From Patescibacteria group bacterium (lineage in GTDB: Bacteria; Patescibacteriota; Minisyncoccia; Minisyncoccales; PEYH01), in contig JAHIFQ010000015.1 in assembly GCA_018900835.1 (NCBI GenBank), positions 50,301 through 114,300 of the forward strand: a stretch of 64,000 nt of DNA, in the 5' to 3' direction. The notes below the pieces were generated by a model that made no database searches, was not told where the DNA came from, and saw nothing but the letters and a program-made list of their open reading frames with translations. Position numbers and translations under genes: made by a program. Positions 6,044 to 59,220 of the stretch are shown here, one piece after another; within the stretch, counting starts at the first letter, position 1, and each line of letters starts with the position of its first letter.

Positions 6044-6070
6044 ATGTTTAGAGGTTCAACCTCTAAACAT
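6044..6070. repeat. Palindromic element family 2 (ATGTTTAGAGGTT-C-AACCTCTAAACAT), copy A
   Basis: Perfect 13+1+13 palindrome. Identical copies at 7433-7459 and 42206-42232. Confidence 0.85.
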
Positions 6071-6077
6071 CGAATGA

Positions 6078-6100
6078 TTTTGGAAACCAGGTTTCCAAAA
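6078..6100. repeat. Palindromic element family 3 (TTTTGGAAACC-A-GGTTTCCAAAA), adjacent to family-2 copy
   Basis: 11+1+11 palindrome. Second copy at 46657-46679. Confidence 0.8.
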
Positions 6101-6180
6101 TGGTGGTTTCCAGAATGGCAACAAAAACCATACTTGACACCATTTTTACCATTTTAATTATTTTAATTAAATATTAATAT

Positions 6181-7431: not shown

Positions 7432-7460
7432 AATGTTTAGAGGTTCAACCTCTAAACATT
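7432..7460. repeat. Palindromic element family 2, copy B (plus partial direct repeat CTCTAAACAT at 7464-7473)
   Basis: Identical to 6043-6070 core. Confidence 0.85.
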
Positions 7461-22833: not shown

Positions 22834-23840
22834 ACGAAAGCAGTATTAATCCAATTAATAATATTTTCCATATCCTTGAATCGGTCGCTTGACCCTAATA
22901 CTATATTTATAACATGCCCACCATTTTTCGGTTGAGGCATTATCACTAACAGGCATTGCCCGGCAATTGGAGTTTGCCCTGTTTTGGCTCCGAATGTATT
23001 GGGGAATTCGCTAAGTAATTTATTGGTGCTTATCGCTTCATGATGAACCCGTCCGTTAGCAAGAGTAATTGGGTATTTTGGGTTTCTAGTAATCTCAAAT
23101 ATTCTTGCTATCTCGGGATTCGTATCTGCTTCTTGAAGAATATGTCTTACCATCATTGCTAAATCATTCGCAGTTGAATAATTATATCCTCCTCCAAAAA
23201 AATCAGGGTCCAGACCAATCGGGTCTATAAAATGAGTGTATTTCAAGCCGATTTCCTTAACTTTTTTATTCATAAGATTGACAAACTGTTGTTCTCCCAT
23301 AATTTCTGCTAAAGCTCTGGCAGCATCGTTGCTTGATTCAATAAGAATTGAGTGAAGCAATTGGTCAACAGTGAATTTTTCACCCACCCAGAATCCGCCA
23401 ATAATTTCTTCAGTGTCAACAGCTCTTTGGGATATAACAACCTCTTGGTCAAGCTCATAATTCTGCAGAACAATATAGGCAGTGAGCAGTTTAGTCAAGC
23501 TGGCGATTGGCATTATTTCGTCAGGCGACTTATCAAATATCATTCGTGGGCTCCCAGAATCAGTCACTAAACTTATGGCTGATTTGGCTTTCAGTCCCTC
23601 CAATTCTCCTGTTTTCCAATTCCTAAACGGTTTTAAAAAAGAATAATCCACTGGCGCGCTCACCACGGCAGCAGTATAAATATCTTTCGTTTTTTTCCAA
23701 TAAAGATATTCATTGGCAATTTTTCCCAAAGCAATACTCCCTGAAATTGAGGCGAGCAATAATCCTCCTGCCACAATATTTTTGGTTTTTGGTAGGTTAA
23801 ACTTAAATTTTGCCTTTGGATACCAGGTTTCCAAATTCAT
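22827..23840 (-). CDS. D-alanyl-D-alanine carboxypeptidase (S11, PBP5-like)
   Basis: SxxK (ASLTK), SxN (SSND), KTG (AKTGQT) active-site triad motifs. Confidence 0.75.
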   Translation of the reverse strand: MNLETWYPKAKFKFNLPKTKNIVAGGLLLASISGSIALGKIANEYLYWKKTKDIYTAAVVSAPVDYSFLKPFRNWKTGELEGLKAKSAISLVTDSGSPRMIFDKSPDEIMPIASLTKLLTAYIVLQNYELDQEVVISQRAVDTEEIIGGFWVGEKFTVDQLLHSILIESSNDAARALAEIMGEQQFVNLMNKKVKEIGLKYTHFIDPIGLDPDFFGGGYNYSTANDLAMMVRHILQEADTNPEIARIFEITRNPKYPITLANGRVHHEAISTNKLLSEFPNTFGAKTGQTPIAGQCLLVIMPQPKNGGHVINIVLGSSDRFKDMENIINWINTAFVW

Positions 23841-32101: not shown

Positions 32102-32144
32102 AATCCTTATATTTATTCATAATCCTTTTTGCTTTTTTCTATTT

Positions 32145-32167
32145 CCGCCGAGATCGTTTCTCGGCGG
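32145..32167. repeat. REP palindrome (family 1: GCCGAGA-TCGTT-TCTCGGC), copy flanking RAYT 3' side
   Basis: CCGCCGAGATCGTTTCTCGGCGG. Same element at 32701-32719, 32928-32946 (reverse orientation) and 58837-58855. Confidence 0.85.
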
Positions 32168-32184
32168 ATTTCAGTTAGATTCTC

Positions 32185-32904
32185 CTATTCTATTACTACC
32201 TCTTCAAAATCAACTAATTCTTTTTTAAACTTAAGCCAATTATTAACAAATTCTCGGCAACCATCTGCACCTTCCATTATTTTCTCTAAAAATTCCCTAT
32301 TTGTCAAAGAAGGGAAATTTTTCTTTCCTAAATAATCTGGATAACTTGACCATTTATATTTATTTTCTAAAAAATCAATTGCCGCATCTATGTTTTCTAT
32401 TTGCACTCCTTTGTTTTTCCATTCCAGAATTATTAATGACATTGGATTTGTGTGTATATAAACAAACACAGTTTCTAATCGCTCTTCTGTCTCGATACGA
32501 ACTATCCTGTATCTTCCTTGAAAAAGATGTCCATTCCTCTCATATTTTTTATTATAGTAACCACTATAACCTGCTCCAATCTTATGCATTAATTTGCTGA
32601 TTCCGTTATCGCAAGTTTGTTTTATTAACAAATGAATATGATTTGGCATTAGGCAAAATGCCAAAATTTCTACCAAAAGTTTCCTTTTCTTTCTATTCTC
32701 GCCGAGATCGTTTCTCGGCAGAGATAGCGGAGATAAGTTTCTTCTATAATCTCTGGATACTGGATTTTCGTCGTTAAATTCAAAAAGGTTGTTTATCATT
32801 CGAAAATAATCTTTATCGCCACGAAAAAGGTCTATCCCCTCTATTGTTCGGGTGACGATATGATATATTTCTCCATTTACTATTTCAGGTCTTTTTGATG
32901 GCAT
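32185..32904 (-). mobile_element. REP-associated tyrosine transposase (RAYT; IS200/IS605 TnpA Y1 HuH family)
   Basis: HuH motif LMPNHIHLLI and catalytic Tyr region YSGYYNKKYERNGHLFQGRY. Flanked by REP palindromes. Carries one REP in-frame (LPRNDLGE). Confidence 0.75.
32701..32719. repeat. REP family 1 copy inside RAYT coding sequence (in-frame)
   Basis: GCCGAGATCGTTTCTCGGC. Confidence 0.85.
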
Positions 32905-32919
32905 TCATCTATTATTGAT

Positions 32920-35334
32920 TCAATCTTGCCGAGAAACGATCTCGGCAGATTGTTTTTTATCTTTTAAGCTTATCAGTGTTTTGACCACAGCGTCAGGGCT
33001 TAAAGACATTGATTCAATCCCCTCTTTTGCCAAAAATTCCGCGAAATCAGGAAATGTAGACGGCGCTTCTCCGCAAATGCCCACATATTTTTTCCTTGCC
33101 AAACATTTTTTTATCACTATTTTCAATGACTCCTTCACTGCCTCGTTTCTCTCGTCAGCAATATGCGCAATTTGGGCATTGTCCCTATCTATTCCCATTG
33201 TAAGCTGGGTCAAATCATTGGACCCAATGCTCATTCCGTCAAAAATATCCAAAAACTTATCAGCTAAAATTACATTAGACGGAATTTCACACATCACATA
33301 TATTTTCAATCCGTCCTTTTCTTGCTTAAGACCGAATTTCTTCATCAACTCAATTACCCTTGCTCCTTCTTCTGGAGTTCGGCAAAAAGGAACCATCACT
33401 GAAACATTTTTTAATCCGAATATATCTCTTACTCTTTTGATTGCTTCGCATTCCATTCCAAATGCAGGCGCATATTTTTCGTCATAATACCGCGAAGCGC
33501 CTCTCCAGCCAATCATTGGATTTTCTTCTATTGGCTCGTACTCTTTACCACCTATCAATTGAGCATACTCGTTTGTTTTAAAATCAGAAAATCTAACTAT
33601 CGCTTCTTGCGGATAAAAAGCAGCTGCAATTTGAGCAATGCCTTCTGCCAACTCCTTTACAAAATATTCCTTTTTGTCCTTATGCTCTACGGTTAATTCT
33701 TCAATTTGCTTTTTTAATTTTCCATCCCTTATTTTATTGAAATTATATAGCGCCATTGGGTGACATTTTATTTTCTGTGCGATAATAAATTCTTCTCGCG
33801 CCAAACCAACTCCATTTACTGGCAAAAAAGATGTCTTGAAAGCTAATTCTGGCGCTCCGATGTTGACGCTAATTTTTATTTTCGTTTTAGGCACTTTTTT
33901 AAGATTGTATACTTTGACTTCATAAGGAATCTTGCCAGCATAAATCCTGCCATTTAATCCTTGGGTGCAGTCAATTGTTATGTATTGTCCGTTCTTTAAA
34001 ATCTTAGTAGCTTTTTCTGTTCCCACAATACAAGGTATTCCTAATTCTCTGCTTACTATCGCTGCGTGTGCGGTCTTAGAGCCCTCGTCTGTTACAATTG
34101 CTGATGCCATTTGCATAACTGGAACCCAATCAGGGTCTGTCATCTTAGTAACCAGAATTTCTCCTTTCTTAAATTCGCTCATCTTCTTTACATCAGAAAC
34201 AATCCGCACTTTTCCTTCGCCGATTTTATCTCCAATAGCAATACCCTTGAGTATTGGCTCTACTTTGGCATGAATTGAATATTCTGTGTATGTTGTTTTC
34301 GTTTCCGAGCGATGAACTGTTTCTGGCCTTGATTGGACAATAAAAAGTTTTCCTGTTTTTCCATCTTTCGCCCATTCCAAATCCTGTGGCATCCATTTTT
34401 TATTTAACCCGGAATAATAATCTTCAATCGTGCATGCCCATTTCGCCAAAGTAACAATATCATTATCAGATAAAGAAAATTTTAATTGCTCTTCCTTTTT
34501 TACAGGAATTTCTTTTAGTCCGCCATTAACACTATAAATTAGTTTCTTCGTTTTCCTGCCAAGATTTTTGACAATTATGGATTTGTATCCTTCTTTGAGA
34601 GTTGGCTTGAAAACGAAAAATTCGTCAGGAGTTATTTGTCCTTTTACAATCATTTCTCCCACTCCCCAGATAGAATTAATTAATACCACATTAGGAAATC
34701 CTGTTTCCGTGTCCAATGTGAACATTACACCTGAAGAGCCGATTCCGGAATTGACCATTTTCTGCACACCAACGGATAAGGCAATCTGCAAATGGTCAAA
34801 ACCCTTCTCCTGCCTGTAAGCAATTGCTCTGTCTGTGAAAAGCGATGAAATACATTTTTTGACTGCTCTTAAAACCTCTTGTTCTCCTTTAATATTTAAA
34901 TATGTTTCCTGCTGACCAGCAAAACTGGCTGTTGGCAAGTCCTCTGCAGTTGCAGAGCTTCGCACAGCAACAACAACATCTTTCTCTTTGTATATTTGGC
35001 AGAGTTTTCTGTAATACTTAATAATCTTCCTTTCCAATTTTTTGGGGAGTTCCGCTCCTAAAATCAATTCCCGAGATTTCTTGCCAGTTTCCTGCAAGCT
35101 CTTGATATTATTGGGTTTAAAGTTTTTGAAAACTTTTTTTAATTGGTCATAAACGCCGGTCTCTTTTAAAAAGAGAAAATAGGCATGAGAGGTGAGCGCA
35201 AACCCATTCGGAATATTTATTCCTTCAGGAACCAAATGTCTAAACATTTCTCCAAGAGAAGCATTTTTTCCTCCGACTAAAGGAACATCCTTGATTCCAA
35301 CATTTTTAAACCAAACAATATATTTTTTAAGCAT
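32920..35334 (-). CDS. ppsA: Phosphoenolpyruvate synthase (PEP-utilising enzyme)
   Basis: N-terminal VGGKNASLGEM, phospho-His region TSHAAIVSRELGIPCIVG, C-terminal PEP-utilisers TIM barrel. 804 aa. Confidence 0.8.
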   Translation of the reverse strand: MLKKYIVWFKNVGIKDVPLVGGKNASLGEMFRHLVPEGINIPNGFALTSHAYFLFLKETGVYDQLKKVFKNFKPNNIKSLQETGKKSRELILGAELPKKLERKIIKYYRKLCQIYKEKDVVVAVRSSATAEDLPTASFAGQQETYLNIKGEQEVLRAVKKCISSLFTDRAIAYRQEKGFDHLQIALSVGVQKMVNSGIGSSGVMFTLDTETGFPNVVLINSIWGVGEMIVKGQITPDEFFVFKPTLKEGYKSIIVKNLGRKTKKLIYSVNGGLKEIPVKKEEQLKFSLSDNDIVTLAKWACTIEDYYSGLNKKWMPQDLEWAKDGKTGKLFIVQSRPETVHRSETKTTYTEYSIHAKVEPILKGIAIGDKIGEGKVRIVSDVKKMSEFKKGEILVTKMTDPDWVPVMQMASAIVTDEGSKTAHAAIVSRELGIPCIVGTEKATKILKNGQYITIDCTQGLNGRIYAGKIPYEVKVYNLKKVPKTKIKISVNIGAPELAFKTSFLPVNGVGLAREEFIIAQKIKCHPMALYNFNKIRDGKLKKQIEELTVEHKDKKEYFVKELAEGIAQIAAAFYPQEAIVRFSDFKTNEYAQLIGGKEYEPIEENPMIGWRGASRYYDEKYAPAFGMECEAIKRVRDIFGLKNVSVMVPFCRTPEEGARVIELMKKFGLKQEKDGLKIYVMCEIPSNVILADKFLDIFDGMSIGSNDLTQLTMGIDRDNAQIAHIADERNEAVKESLKIVIKKCLARKKYVGICGEAPSTFPDFAEFLAKEGIESMSLSPDAVVKTLISLKDKKQSAEIVSRQD
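32928..32946. repeat. REP family 1 copy (reverse orientation) forming the last codons of ppsA (…SAEIVSRQD*)
   Basis: GCCGAGAAACGATCTCGGC. ppsA stop codon lies 6 nt beyond. Confidence 0.85.
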
Positions 35335-38590: not shown

Positions 38591-38639
38591 GGGCGTTTTT
38601 ACGAGACCCGGCCTCATCAACGAGGCCGGGTCTCGTTGA

Positions 38640-38879
38640 TTAATCTTTAAGGCGGAGTAACTCCATTATTTTTTGCTTATCAAAACCAATCACAATCTCA
38701 TCATCAATTTCTGTTACAGGCACTGCCATTTTGCCTGTTTTTTCAAAGATATAGTTTTGCGCCTCCTCATTGTCGCTCACATCAATAACTTCAAACTTTA
38801 CACCCTTCTCATATAGGAATTGTTTCAATATCTCGCAATAAGGACAACTTGGAGTTGAATATATCTTCACAATAGCCAT
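38640..38879 (-). CDS. Glutaredoxin-like protein (CPYC active site)
   Basis: IYSTPSCPYCEILKQFL. 79 aa. Confidence 0.75.
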   Translation of the reverse strand: MAIVKIYSTPSCPYCEILKQFLYEKGVKFEVIDVSDNEEAQNYIFEKTGKMAVPVTEIDDEIVIGFDKQKIMELLRLKD

Positions 38880-40772: not shown

Positions 40773-41408
40773 TTATTCTATTATTACATCGTCAACGGAA
40801 TAAAGAAATTGAGAACTGTCAATCATCAGATTATATATGTCTATATACTGATTGTCTAAAAGCGTAATTTCTAAATAGCCGTTTTCCACGGGCACAATGA
40901 CATCTGTAATGATATCCCCTGCCTTGAATCCCATAGACGCATCGCGGAGATATTCTGTTTTATACTGCGGAACTTCTACCTCTAAATCGCCGACCATAAT
41001 TTTGTCTAAAACAACATTTTTGTCCTCATCTGTCTTGCGAAAAGGAACAATAATTTCCTCATATTGCTGAATTGTCCGGAAATTAATAGCAAACATCAAA
41101 TCCTTTGCCATAGTAATACTACAATCATTGGCCTTCAGGGCTTCAACTTTTTCCTTGGGTCCGAACACTATGGTCTTGGCGCATTTATCATTTGCCCAGA
41201 TTTCAGGATACTTTATTTCATACCCATACTCTTCATTGGTATATGTCTGCCAATTTGTAATATCTTCTACTATTGGCGCTGGTGTTGGATTTGGTGATAG
41301 AGTTTCTCCCTCTGGCCAAAACTGCCAAATTAAGAAAGCTGTAACAATAATTCCGAAAACAAAGACAAGATACAAAATGTTTTTACTTTTCATTTTCTTT
41401 TTCTTCAA
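40773..41408 (-). CDS. Membrane-anchored hypothetical protein, paralog of 42590-43231
   Basis: WQFW TM anchor, Pro/Thr linker, TNEEYGYEIKYPEIW motif shared with the paralog. Confidence 0.45.
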   Translation of the reverse strand: MKKKKMKSKNILYLVFVFGIIVTAFLIWQFWPEGETLSPNPTPAPIVEDITNWQTYTNEEYGYEIKYPEIWANDKCAKTIVFGPKEKVEALKANDCSITMAKDLMFAINFRTIQQYEEIIVPFRKTDEDKNVVLDKIMVGDLEVEVPQYKTEYLRDASMGFKAGDIITDVIVPVENGYLEITLLDNQYIDIYNLMIDSSQFLYSVDDVIIE

Positions 41409-42609
41409 TTAATAATAATCTATTATACTTTGCCAGTCGTTCAGGCATAACTGGCGCGCCTGATTTAATGAAATCAGCGCCAACCCCGATTGCAAAGTCA
41501 GCAATGAAATCATCCATTGTTTCTCCTGAACGATGAGAAACCATTATTTTCCATTGATGCGCTTTTGCCAATTTTATTGCCTCTATTGCTTCGCTAACTG
41601 TTCCTATTTGATTTACTTTAATAATTACTCCGTTGCAAGCTGTTTTTTCAATCGCTTCTTGTATTCTCAATGGATTTGTGACCAATAAATCATCCCCGAT
41701 AATTGTCATCTTACTCCCCATCTTATTATAAATCCCTTGAAATCCCTGCCAATCATCTTCTGCAAAAGGATCTTCAAAACCAATAATAGGATATTTTACA
41801 ATCAAATTATTATAAAATTCAAGCAATGCGCTTCTGCTGAAAGGCAGGCCTTCAAGCTGATAATTTTCTCCATCTTGGAAATGAGTGGCAGCACAATCAA
41901 GAAGAAATCCAACTTCTTTTTTATTAAACCCAGCTTTAACCACCGCTTCTTGCAAAAAATCCAATGCTTCAATAGTAGAGGGAATCATCGGAGCAAATCC
42001 TCCTTCATCCCCTATCGGAAGTTTATCAAACTTCCTGCTTAAAATTCCTTTTAGTGATTGATAAATATCTTTTGCTGACTGAAAATTTTCTGAAAAACTA
42101 TTCATTTGGGGAACAATCATAAACTCTTGAATATCTAAATCATTATTAGCGTGAGCTCCCCCATTGATGATATTAAAACAAGCTAAAGGCATCTTAAAAT
42201 TTTCAATGTTTAGAGGTTCAACCTCTAAACATTGGGAGATGTGTTTGTAGAGAGGGATGTTTTTAGTTTGAGCGCCGAGCTTGGAAATTGCCATTGAGAC
42301 CCCGACAATTGCGTTGCCACCAAGCACCGATTTATCAGCTGTTCCATCAATCTCAAGCATTAAATTATCTATTTCTTTTTGATTTGTTGGGTCCTTGCCA
42401 ATTAATTGCGGGGCAATGATTTCATTTACATTTTTAATCGCTTTTGGAACATCTATGACTTTTGCTTCCAGCTTACCAGTGGAAGCGCCAGAAGGAACCC
42501 CTGCTTTAACAGAAAAATCAGAGGTTTCTGCTATAACCTCTATTGTCGGATTCTTTCGCGAATCCAATATTATCTGCGCTGTAATTGATTTAATCTTCAC
42601 CATTTTCAT
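41383..42609 (-). CDS. eno: Enolase, carrying an in-frame palindromic-element insertion
   Basis: SITAQIILDSRKNPTIEV N-terminus, NIINGGAHA, KVNQIGTVSEAIEA. Likely start MVKIKSI. Confidence 0.85.
   Translation of the reverse strand: MKMVKIKSITAQIILDSRKNPTIEVIAETSDFSVKAGVPSGASTGKLEAKVIDVPKAIKNVNEIIAPQLIGKDPTNQKEIDNLMLEIDGTADKSVLGGNAIVGVSMAISKLGAQTKNIPLYKHISQCLEVEPLNIENFKMPLACFNIINGGAHANNDLDIQEFMIVPQMNSFSENFQSAKDIYQSLKGILSRKFDKLPIGDEGGFAPMIPSTIEALDFLQEAVVKAGFNKKEVGFLLDCAATHFQDGENYQLEGLPFSRSALLEFYNNLIVKYPIIGFEDPFAEDDWQGFQGIYNKMGSKMTIIGDDLLVTNPLRIQEAIEKTACNGVIIKVNQIGTVSEAIEAIKLAKAHQWKIMVSHRSGETMDDFIADFAIGVGADFIKSGAPVMPERLAKYNRLLLIEEKENEK
42204..42234. repeat. Palindromic element family 2, copy C, in-frame inside eno (encodes ~QCLEVEPLNIE)
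   Basis: CAATGTTTAGAGGTTCAACCTCTAAACATTG (15+1+15). Confidence 0.85.
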
Positions 42610-43231
42610 TAATAAACTTAAATGTGGAAAGGATTTGTTCAAATGTATTAAGCTCCGGACTACAGTTTGGATAATAACTAATTTCAATTATATTAATGTC
42701 TTTTTTGAATAACACGATTATATTATCGTTGGGATATCCTCCTATTTGGTAAAATTTTAAAGCTTCTTGGTCACTAACGATTGTTTTTTCGAGTTGCGCT
42801 TCTTTAGAATTGAAATAAGATTTACCGCTTTCTTGATGCACATCGGTCCCAAATTCAGCCTCAGTAGAATTATCTGCGAACCACTCTTCTAAACTCTTAT
42901 TTAATGGGTTTGACTTAATATAAATAATAAACTCGCATCCTCCAGATGGATTCTCTTTGTATTCTTCGTTTCTAAAAAGAACATAGTCAGATTTTTCGCT
43001 GATATAATAAAAGTTCGGATACCTTATCTCATATCCATATTCCTCGTTTCTGTATGTCTCCCAATCCGTGGTTTCGTCAATGGGCGGAGTTGATGTTGGT
43101 GTAGTTGCGGACACTGGTGGTGTTGGGGACGGTATTTCTTCTCCTGGCCCTGACCAGAACTGCCAGACCAAAATTCCGCCGATGATTACGACAAAAAGAC
43201 AAATGATTAAAATGCCGATAGGTTTAATCAT
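42590..43231 (-). CDS. Membrane-anchored hypothetical protein, paralog of 40773-41408
   Basis: WQFW, PTPPVSATTPTSTPP linker, RNEEYGYEIRYPNFY. Confidence 0.45.
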   Translation of the reverse strand: MIKPIGILIICLFVVIIGGILVWQFWSGPGEEIPSPTPPVSATTPTSTPPIDETTDWETYRNEEYGYEIRYPNFYYISEKSDYVLFRNEEYKENPSGGCEFIIYIKSNPLNKSLEEWFADNSTEAEFGTDVHQESGKSYFNSKEAQLEKTIVSDQEALKFYQIGGYPNDNIIVLFKKDINIIEISYYPNCSPELNTFEQILSTFKFINENGED

Positions 43232-46553: not shown

Positions 46554-46656
46554 TTATTTGGACATTTATTTGGATTTTGGGATTTGAAATTTCTATCTTC
46601 AATTTAACCCTAAAAATCAATTCAGTCAATGTTGTAGGCCAATTCGAGAAACCCAT

Positions 46657-46679
46657 TTTGGAAACCTGGTTTCCAAAAG
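46657..46679. repeat. Palindromic element family 3 copy (with degenerate family-2 remnant CAATGTTGTAGG at 46627-46638)
   Basis: TTTTGGAAACC-T-GGTTTCCAAAA. Confidence 0.75.
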
Positions 46680-50173: not shown

Positions 50174-50202
50174 AAAATTACGAGGCCAGGCCTCGTAATT
50201 TT
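50174..50202. terminator. 14+1+14 perfect palindrome AAAATTACGAGGCC-A-GGCCTCGTAATTTT, terminator of upstream operon
   Basis: Immediately 3' of the stop of 50208-50831. A/T runs on both sides. Confidence 0.6.
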
Positions 50203-58020: not shown

Positions 58021-59220
58021 TTAAATTCTTTTGCTTTTTATTTTATCCCTTATCCCCTCAAGCTTGGTTTCCAAAAAGAAAAGATTGTGTATTGTTAAAA
58101 GTTTTCCAGCCAACATCTCTTTTGCCCTGAAAAGGAAATTAATTTGGGCGATTGTATATTTTTGGCAAACAGGACATTCACAGTTCTTGTCAATTGGTTC
58201 AAACTTATTCTTCAGCTTTCCAGCATCAAGATTCAAATATCCTTTTGAAGTCATTGCTGTACCGTGCCTTGCAATTCTGGTTGGTAAGGCGCAATCAAAT
58301 AAATCAATTCCCAATTTGACAATTTCTTCCAAAACATCCAAGTCCCCTATGCCCAAAAGATGATGAGGTCTCTGCCAGTCAATGTCCTCATTGACCCATG
58401 ATATTGTTTTGTACATATCTTTTTTGCTTTTGCCCAATGCTCCGCCAATAGCAATTCCGAAAACAGGCAAATCATTTACAAATTTGGTTGATTGTTCGCG
58501 TAAGTCCTTAAAAACTCCGCCCTGAATAATACCAAAAATCTGTTGATTAGATTTATTGCCTCCCACGCCTGAGTTGGAAGCTGTTTTTAAAAACCTTTTA
58601 AACCATTGATGGCTTATTTCCATTTCTTTTTCCGCTTCTTTACGGCTATCCATTGGACTGCCACAAACATCTAAAAGATAAATAAAATCAGCCCCCAATT
58701 GCTTTTGAATTTTAAAAGAAAGTTCTGGCGTAAGCAAAATTTCCCTTCCATCTCTTGGGGATTTAAACCTTGCTCCTCTCTGGCTGATTTTCAAAAGATT
58801 TTTTCCTTTTTTGCGTAAAGCAGAATTTTCTTTCTGCCGAGAAACGATCTCGGCGGATTTTTCTTGAGGAAAAATAGAACCGATTTTCCCCAAACCAAAC
58901 TCGCTTCCTTTGCCTAAAGAAAAAACCTGAAAACCGCCGGAATCAGTAAAAATCGGTTTATCAAAATTAAAAAATTTGTGGAGCCCGCCAATCTGCTCAA
59001 CCTCGTTCGCCCTATCCAAGTCTAAAAAATGGAATGTATTAGTAATTTGGCATTGGGCTTTTGTTTGCTGTGTTTCCCCTGAACTCAAACCGCCTTTAAT
59101 CACGCCCAAAGTTGCCACTGGAATAAATGCTGGTGTTTTTATCTTGCCGTGGGGCGTAATAATCTCTCCAATCCGCGCCCTGCTCTTTTTTGATTTCTCC
59201 TGTATTTCAAATTTGAACAT
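58021..59220 (-). CDS. tgt: Queuine tRNA-ribosyltransferase, with in-frame REP insertion
   Basis: TPHGKIKTPAFIPVAT, DSGGFQVFSLG, LLGIGDLD, zinc site CECPVCQ. ~30-aa insertion containing SAEIVSRQ. Confidence 0.8.
   Translation of the reverse strand: MFKFEIQEKSKKSRARIGEIITPHGKIKTPAFIPVATLGVIKGGLSSGETQQTKAQCQITNTFHFLDLDRANEVEQIGGLHKFFNFDKPIFTDSGGFQVFSLGKGSEFGLGKIGSIFPQEKSAEIVSRQKENSALRKKGKNLLKISQRGARFKSPRDGREILLTPELSFKIQKQLGADFIYLLDVCGSPMDSRKEAEKEMEISHQWFKRFLKTASNSGVGGNKSNQQIFGIIQGGVFKDLREQSTKFVNDLPVFGIAIGGALGKSKKDMYKTISWVNEDIDWQRPHHLLGIGDLDVLEEIVKLGIDLFDCALPTRIARHGTAMTSKGYLNLDAGKLKNKFEPIDKNCECPVCQKYTIAQINFLFRAKEMLAGKLLTIHNLFFLETKLEGIRDKIKSKRI
58837..58855. repeat. REP family 1 copy in-frame inside tgt
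   Basis: GCCGAGAAACGATCTCGGC encodes AEIVSRQ on the minus strand. Confidence 0.85.

Follow-up and report, generated by a model that had tools for sequence, protein, structure and literature searches.

The closest described relatives of the system reported here are the REPtrons of Escherichia coli and related bacteria (Nunvar 2010, PMC2817692; Ton-Hoang 2012, PMC3333891; Messing 2012, PDB 4ER8; Corneloup 2021, PMC8266576), in which a single gene encoding a Y1 transposase of the HUH type with HuH and Y...NP motifs (TnpA-REP, or RAYT for tyrosine transposase that is associated with repetitive extragenic palindromes (REPs)) is flanked by cognate, usually inverted REP hairpins. In subclass 2.4 of Quentin et al. 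2018 (PMC6006769; Bertels group 4), REPs of variable length and sequence are found in frame within tnpA-REP genes, between HuH and Y; the proteins have ~194 aa and the motifs NH[IFV]H, WQ and YIxNNP, the REPs have a GTAG "double foot" and the hosts are Cyanobacteria and Bacteroidetes. Subclass 2.1 of the same study (Bertels group 1/TIRYT) has a median length of 238 aa, the motifs NH[VYF]H, FQ/W[EQ] and Y[IV]HLNP/YIELNP, an SS tail and a DnaA-like helix-turn-helix (HTH) tail; it was reported to be without REPs, with GGGG[AT][CG]A[CG] inverted repeats in the flanks. Further, intragenic REPs have been catalogued in many genes, in frame in housekeeping genes (Di Nocera et al. 2013, PMC3733652). 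Here, 64,000 nt of contig JAHIFQ010000015.1 of a Patescibacteria group bacterium (the window) were analysed. Positions 32144-32952 are probably a compact REPtron, that is, a single-copy, vertically inherited RAYT-like gene with hairpins before, after and, ~190 nt in, inside its open reading frame (ORF). It is likewise rather likely that this three-hairpin layout is the norm in a large clade of the candidate phyla radiation (CPR)/Patescibacteria, in which the hairpins are locus-specific and the three copies change in concert.

The unit comprises the following features:

32185..32904, minus strand: RAYT-like Y1 (HUH) tyrosine transposase gene, 239 aa
32921..32952: 5' flanking REP, CAATCT-T-GCCGAGA-aacga-TCTCGGC-A-GATTG on the plus strand
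32701..32719: in-ORF cognate REP copy, centred +194 nt from the RAYT start codon
32144..32168: 3' flanking REP, TCCGCCGAGA-tcgtt-TCTCGGCGGA, stem of 10 bp

The core of these hairpins is the 19-nt palindrome GCCGAGA-N5-TCTCGGC, of which four exact copies are present in the window; 0.12 were expected and 0/100 shuffles reached four. The copies at 32147-32165 and 32701-32719 have the loop TCGTT and those at 32928-32946 and 58836-58854 its complement AACGA, the two flanking copies being inverted. Permitting two mismatches in the window scan revealed no further copies. The stem extends to 10 bp at 32144-32168 and to 8 bp at 32927-32947, where it is prolonged across one bulge to CAATCT/AGATTG (32921-32952); the outer stem is AATCT-like, often AATCT/AGATT, across the loci described below. 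The 3' hairpin lies 17 nt past the RAYT stop codon and 43 nt ahead of the pfkB start, the 5' hairpin ends 23 nt short of the start of RAYT and overlaps ppsA over its final nine codons and its stop, and the fourth copy lies in tgt. An earlier reading of the letters alone (the original prediction) had reported copies at the transposase gene and in tgt; all of them are real, with two of its coordinates (32145-32167 and 58837-58855) off by 1-2 nt. Three independent assemblies (one from ENA, two from Logan) have this arrangement with identical sequence, so that it cannot be due to faulty assembly.

The 239-aa protein is a Y1 HUH enzyme of a REP/RAYT-type unit. It contains the HuH motif NHIH (residues 88-91, within PNHIHLLI), the Tyr motif YIHTNP (residues 149-154) and WSSY in the C-terminal tail; Y...NP is the class-2, RAYT-type Tyr signature according to Quentin et al. 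2018. Pfam Y1_Tnp was matched with 51.8 bits (cut-off 23), the aligned part being limited to residues 74-152 because the region past the first strand is interrupted. An AlphaFold (AF2) model built on 41 homologs had a predicted template modelling score (pTM) of 0.75, and a Foldseek search of this model against the PDB gave 4ER8, the E. coli RAYT bound to its REP hairpin, as top match, followed by the transposases of IS608 and ISDra2. Motifs, fold and the inverted flanking copies bear out the original prediction of a RAYT-type Y1 gene bracketed by the hairpin, and the in-ORF copy is indeed in frame, encoding (L)PRNDLG(E) at residues 62-69. These residues fall within the only internal low-confidence segment of the model (residues 55-70, predicted local distance difference test (pLDDT) <50), a loop modelled as disordered between helix 51-55 and strand 78-85, which leads to HuH. 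With the in-ORF copy in such a loop, the protein would tolerate whatever peptide the hairpin dictates.

Homologous loci (80) were fetched from metagenomes and the 75 with a complete ORF and flanks were counted. A perfect hairpin, defined by a stem of >=6 bp, was found with its centre +150 to +240 nt from the start codon in 50/75 loci. In 41/75 its stem was that of a flanking hairpin, in 29 that of both; in-ORF hairpins matching the flanks amounted to 35/40 in the +180 bin and to ~0 in the other bins. Fourteen further loci had a copy with <=3 mismatches at this site, which brings occupancy to 55/75 (~73%). The medians for the flanking copies were ~34 nt upstream of the start codon (5' hairpin centre) and ~14 nt past the stop codon (3' copy); the two flanking copies were in inverted orientation in 14 loci and in direct orientation in 7. 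The hairpin sequence is wholly different among loci (GCCGAGA.., CACGGGT.., GGGAAGTcggACTTCCC, TATTGATTTacgAAATCAATA, ATGCCGGGGTccgACCCCGGCAT), while within one locus the copies of the triplet are frequently identical even in flanking bases. One Nealsonbacteria contig contains two paralogs, with 59% and 58% identity to the query, each with a triplet of its own (GGTCGAGAA..TTCTCGACC vs CTGACGAGAA..TTCTCGTCAG) at -17/+185/+740. In Patescibacteria the family is large: clustering at 50% identity gave at least 128 clusters (E<=1e-30) and 4,772 (E<=1e-10), and the close homologs come nearly all from Patescibacteria metagenomes. As judged from these comparisons, the three-hairpin layout belongs to the family as a whole, with the in-ORF copy at a fixed position, and is no isolated insertion.

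The stem is maintained at the level of nucleic acid. In 15 loci picked solely by protein identity (>=54%), 85.9% of cells were paired vs 33-46% with the partner slid, both sides had changed in 7/11 pairs and 0/500 shuffles reached the score; in this set the cases of G-U wobble were too few for use as discriminator between RNA and DNA. An alignment of 41 homologs revealed that the LPRNDLGE segment is no extra insertion, since PRTVLG, TRTVLV, ARTVLA, SRTVLD, SGLDPD and similar peptides stand there, and the outer residues of the peptide co-vary as the DNA palindrome demands (P..G, T..V, A..A, S..D). One core is read in all three frames among homologs (PRT.., YENVSR and GREQFSA) and, therefore, it is the nucleic acid that is conserved and not the peptide.

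The hairpins could also be generic terminator-like palindromes of AT-rich CPR genomes whose association with the Y1 gene is coincidental. The two flanking copies do score terminator-like, and the same 19-mer has symmetric AT-rich flanks at each of its three copies in a metagenome-assembled genome (MAG) labelled Pacearchaeota. However, the flanks resemble terminators only when read on the strand opposite to the genes, and no T-tract accompanies the internal copy. The three copies at fixed positions are identical in a locus- and paralog-specific way in 41/75 loci, which excludes coincidence; this explanation is effectively refuted and we regard it as extremely improbable.

If it works like E. 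coli TnpA-REP, the enzyme would bind to the hairpin as folded on single-stranded DNA, with cutting and rejoining at the hairpin foot. The same activity may occasionally copy REPs to new sites, for example the Tgt loop, and would adjust nearby or existing copies to whichever REP variant is current by re-templating or gene conversion directed at existing hairpins. The internal copy would need no additional function. Catalysis, the homogenising mechanism and a preference for action in cis are thus putative and modelled on the E. coli enzyme.

A less probable explanation is that the in-ORF hairpin is a selected cis-acting site, similar to an operator or origin, by which the domesticated HUH transposase would recognise its own gene as single-stranded DNA (displaced or lagging strand) or as mRNA. 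Putative RAYT binding there could lead to autorepression or mark an origin-like nick site, and re-templating would update dispersed copies such as that in the Tgt loop. The high occupancy of one site in proteins that are only 41-100% identical is in line with selection, as are the compensatory stem changes and the perfect stems, which persist while loops and surrounding codons drift: in the CACGGGT clade the internal loops are CGG/GCG/TGC vs TGA in the flanks, and TGA would be an in-frame stop internally; the loops have mutated off TGA with the stems intact. Besides, R64, encoded by the AGA of the core, is >=90% conserved in an otherwise variable, disordered loop, and in many loci the 5' copy reaches up to the start codon or includes part of it, which suggests control at the RNA level. 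On the other hand, about a quarter of the loci lack the hairpin and decayed copies grade continuously. Locus L047 has two adjacent copies at the usual site (+202 and +223), and L077 (+493) and L081 (+522) have the cognate hairpin at a second in-ORF site (+490 to +520), after the Tyr motif, a pattern that looks like repeated insertion into permissive loops. Variable orientation also argues for neutral insertion, and in a distant homolog from Saccharibacteria (L015) the flanking REPs are present and the internal one is absent.

In several homologs the outer stem of the 5' hairpin takes in the ATG start codon (L067, at -15; L109, 9968-10002). This is reminiscent of IS200, whose 5' hairpin occludes translation. 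Nick sites inside the own gene are known from the phiX174 gene A protein and pT181 RepC, which a selected in-ORF site would resemble. Their HUH recognition sites lie within the coding sequence as well, but they are replication origins of autonomous replicons at which nicking is demonstrated, whereas the gene in the window is chromosomal and nicking by its product is putative. If the in-ORF hairpin were under selection as such an operator or origin, the dosage of RAYT would be firmly coupled to its specificity for the REP, which would give a concrete, testable handle on RAYT regulation and REP copying.

In a sister genome (JAHITK01, locus L022) the order ppsA-RAYT-pfkB is kept and the RAYT is 82% identical. 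Relative to the window, its 5' hairpin now has the loop TCATT and its internal hairpin the loop AATGA, a small instance of concerted change. Vertical, low-copy inheritance is indicated by the one transposase copy in the 64-kb window, by this gene order and by the divergent paralogs in one genome. Hairpin-ORF-hairpin might instead be an autonomous IS200-like insertion sequence that is mobile as a whole and not a domesticated RAYT. This would fit the hairpins that hug the ORF ends, the few solo copies, the two paralogs in some genomes and the differing gene neighbourhoods in which homologs are found. It is at odds with the conserved gene order at only 82% RAYT identity and with the paralogs, which are highly diverged, have their own hairpin variants and are not identical copies. 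Moreover, the protein has Y...NP as Tyr motif where IS200 has Y...Q, there is no tnpB near the gene, and solo REPs occur in tgt and elsewhere. Taken together, the locus lacks the marks of IS200/IS605 and we consider an autonomous element unlikely.

The REPtron reading shares much with the E. coli system: one Y1 HUH gene whose product has HuH and Y...NP, flanking cognate hairpins that are inverted in the window, co-evolution of gene and hairpin, 4ER8 as best structural match and a gene order that is kept in the sister species. Unlike in E. coli, the copy number is very low, the protein has 239 aa with a WSSY C-terminal domain, and a third cognate hairpin is fixed in the ORF. With subclass 2.4 it has in common that the RAYT gene holds its own REP with the frame intact, in a peripheral and variable region of the protein. 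The window transposase is nevertheless no member of this subclass, since its hairpin lies N-terminal to HuH (residues 62-69 vs 88-91) at a fixed position of ~+190 nt and the protein has FQ, YIHTNP and 239 aa; the hosts are CPR bacteria. In length, FQ, the Y[IV]HxNP-type motif and the tail "SS", the protein is like subclass 2.1 (its HuH is NHIH; the comparison is by described motifs), but the genes of the clade are flanked and entered by perfect hairpins and Pfam detected no HTH domain in the 239-aa protein.

Several observations weigh against the REPtron reading. Dispersed copies are few: the 64-kb window contains one besides those of the REPtron, and 212 kb of sequence flanking the homologs contain nine (0.42 per 10 kb), one of the nine in a long ORF, so that in the sequence covered these hairpins are not REPs in the high-copy sense; they are a low-copy REP family. 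Neither GTAG nor CTAC, the canonical GT[AG]G foot, adjoins any of the four copies in the window, and a CGTC foot is lacking as well. The NCBIfam equivalog NF047646 (REP_Tyr_transpos) was matched with only 49 bits, under its cut-off of 80, and the family alignment, used as a profile against PDB sequences, gave no match at E<=0.01, which is why the fold search described above was used. The motifs NHIH, FQ and YIHTNP, the SS tail and the length of 239 aa resemble subclass 2.1, which is reported to be REP-free. The loop orientation of the three copies differs between loci without a consistent rule and as predicted by no simple mechanism; hence, no strand-specific mechanism could be inferred. Finally, the ~73% occupancy of a single site with perfect stems could mean selection and not neutral re-templating.

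The original prediction knew of no such in-frame domestication for a CPR-type genome or for a RAYT with its own REP. As a claim of novelty this was overstated, since in-frame REPs have been published both for RAYT genes (Quentin et al. 2018) and for housekeeping genes (Di Nocera et al. 2013). The apparently new point is a clade spread across the CPR in which the in-ORF REP has a fixed position upstream of HuH and changes together with the flanking copies; the clade differs from published systems in combining this site with 2.1-like motifs and length, REPs without a GTAG foot and CPR hosts. We found no paper linking REPtrons or TnpA-REP with Patescibacteria in a literature search whose coverage was incomplete, which makes this weak evidence. 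RAYT/REP systems are widespread. As a natural system the clade is very compact, with one gene, three cognate hairpins and few dispersed copies, and it offers dozens of natural specificity swaps, including two in a single genome. It is, therefore, well suited to testing hairpin recognition, the choice of the cleavage site and possible autoregulation.

Two further genes of the window also carry the palindrome, tgt as a dispersed copy:

32920..35334, minus strand: ppsA (phosphoenolpyruvate (PEP) synthase), 804 aa, ending ...KKQSAEIVSRQD*
58021..59220, minus strand: tgt (tRNA-guanine transglycosylase), 399 aa, with SAEIVSRQ at residues 122-129
58833..58857: dispersed REP copy in tgt, in frame, encoding SAEIVSRQ (residues 122-129)

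The palindrome had originally been proposed to be separately inserted and domesticated in RAYT, ppsA and tgt as lineage-specific in-frame insertions. It is in frame in all three ORFs, and the copy in tgt, located in a loop, is missing in most orthologs. For RAYT the proposal is refuted, since homologs have their own cognate hairpin at the same site, an outcome that the original prediction had itself named as contrary to a lineage-specific insertion. For ppsA it is refuted as well. The C-terminal tail QSAEIVSRQD is a read-through into the 5' REP, and the match to the NCBIfam PEP synthase (1136 bits) stops at residue 797. In the sister genome, ppsA ends ...LKGKNH*, 18 nt ahead of the 5' REP, which is intergenic there. 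Because the sister gene stops before the same REP, the window ppsA has evidently lost its stop codon and runs for about nine codons through the pre-existing flanking REP of RAYT, without any insertion. The observation that the hairpin forms the last nine codons of ppsA was thus correct and its interpretation as an insertion was not. With two of three events gone, the three-insertion proposal is improbable.

The copy in tgt has, by alignment and model, truly been inserted in frame, into a hypervariable loop predicted to be disordered (residues 109-138, pLDDT <50 in the Tgt AlphaFold model). Alignment of 45 orthologs revealed a clade-wide loop GSIFPEETSSE--RKKGKNLLKISQRG, to which the window adds ~9-11 residues including SAEIVSRQ. 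These residues are absent from most orthologs, those without the REP being without the peptide, and ortholog P0018 has no REP at the site at the DNA level. The insertion is, therefore, lineage-specific and in a loop as had been predicted; of the ~30-aa insertion assumed before, the in-frame REP stands, while most of the loop is common to all clade orthologs and the REP contributes only the ~9-11 residues. In this loop, the tgt gene of the sister species contains a pair of inverted REPs, translated as AEIVSRR..AEKRSRQ, and ortholog P0002 (82% identical) has its own REP variant AGCGAGAA-ccg-TTCTCGCT after the same left flank GAAAAATCC. This would be explained either by an orthologous site with re-templating or by a hot spot of recurrent insertion. 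In orthologs P0005, P0009, P0015 and P0063-P0083 the loop after GSIFP contains unrelated inserts, for example PARSHCIVAGG, PARIAMRASARLRSVAGG and NPVRGQGYSIRTQSERTSNGV; their amino-acid pattern suggests a palindromic origin, and the loop would then be a general hot spot. In-frame palindromes in housekeeping genes, including those for tRNA-modification enzymes, that are tolerated in loops are likewise known as intragenic REPs and Rickettsia palindromic elements. The latter are on the order of 100 bp or more, whereas the elements described here are hairpins of 19-31 nt in a CPR host, and the Tgt site is common to related species with their own variants.

The exact 19-mer was found in four low-GC MAGs, two from Patescibacteria, one from Saccharibacteria and the one labelled Pacearchaeota. 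The CPR MAGs contain 2-6 exact copies each; in the sister MAG there are at least eight copies, at four sites besides the REPtron. In the Saccharibacteria MAG the 19-mer adjoins a 40%-identical RAYT with a different cognate REP and no internal copy. The MAG DAOSAR01 (labelled Candidatus Pacearchaeota archaeon, DPANN, 30% GC) has the 19-mer at L005:3831, L020:2937 and L024:3719, which could be due to mis-binning, horizontal transfer or a shared element. Single matches in ~12 high-GC genomes (Nocardia, Mesorhizobium and others) have unrelated flanks and were taken as chance.

The window contains other palindromes. A second, unrelated family, CAATGTTTAGAGGTTCAACCTCTAAACATTG, with a stem of 12-14 bp, is present at 42204-42234, 6044-6070 and 7432-7460. 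The copy at 42204-42234 is in frame in the gene for enolase (41383-42687, minus strand) and encodes QCLEVEPLNI, a peptide that is shared or partly retained by several enolase orthologs (67-83% identity); the sister species differs there. Small palindromes thus settle in disordered loops of core enzymes in CPR bacteria with reduced genomes (this REP in Tgt, the second family in enolase), which bears on annotation and on the interpretation of "CPR-specific insertions" in conserved proteins. The inner part GAGGTTCAACCTC of the enolase-type palindrome resembles the REPs that flank the RAYT homologs in L068, L083, L085 and L100. The hairpin AAAATTACGAGGCCAGGCCTCGTAATTTT at 50174-50202 (13-bp stem) is a member of the ATTACGAGGC family, which flanks RAYT homologs in L057, L062, L067 and the Saccharibacteria locus L015; no cognate RAYT is present in the window. 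The palindrome TTTTGGAAACCWGGTTTCCAAAA was found at 6077-6101, 23813-23836 and 46656-46678, apparently in intergenic positions, and one of its copies directly adjoins an enolase-type copy. A long GC-rich hairpin, ACGAGACCCGGCCTC-atcaac-GAGGCCGGGTCTCGT, with a 15-bp stem is located at 38601-38640 in this window of 37% GC, outside ORFs of >=150 aa, the nearest of which ends at 38620.

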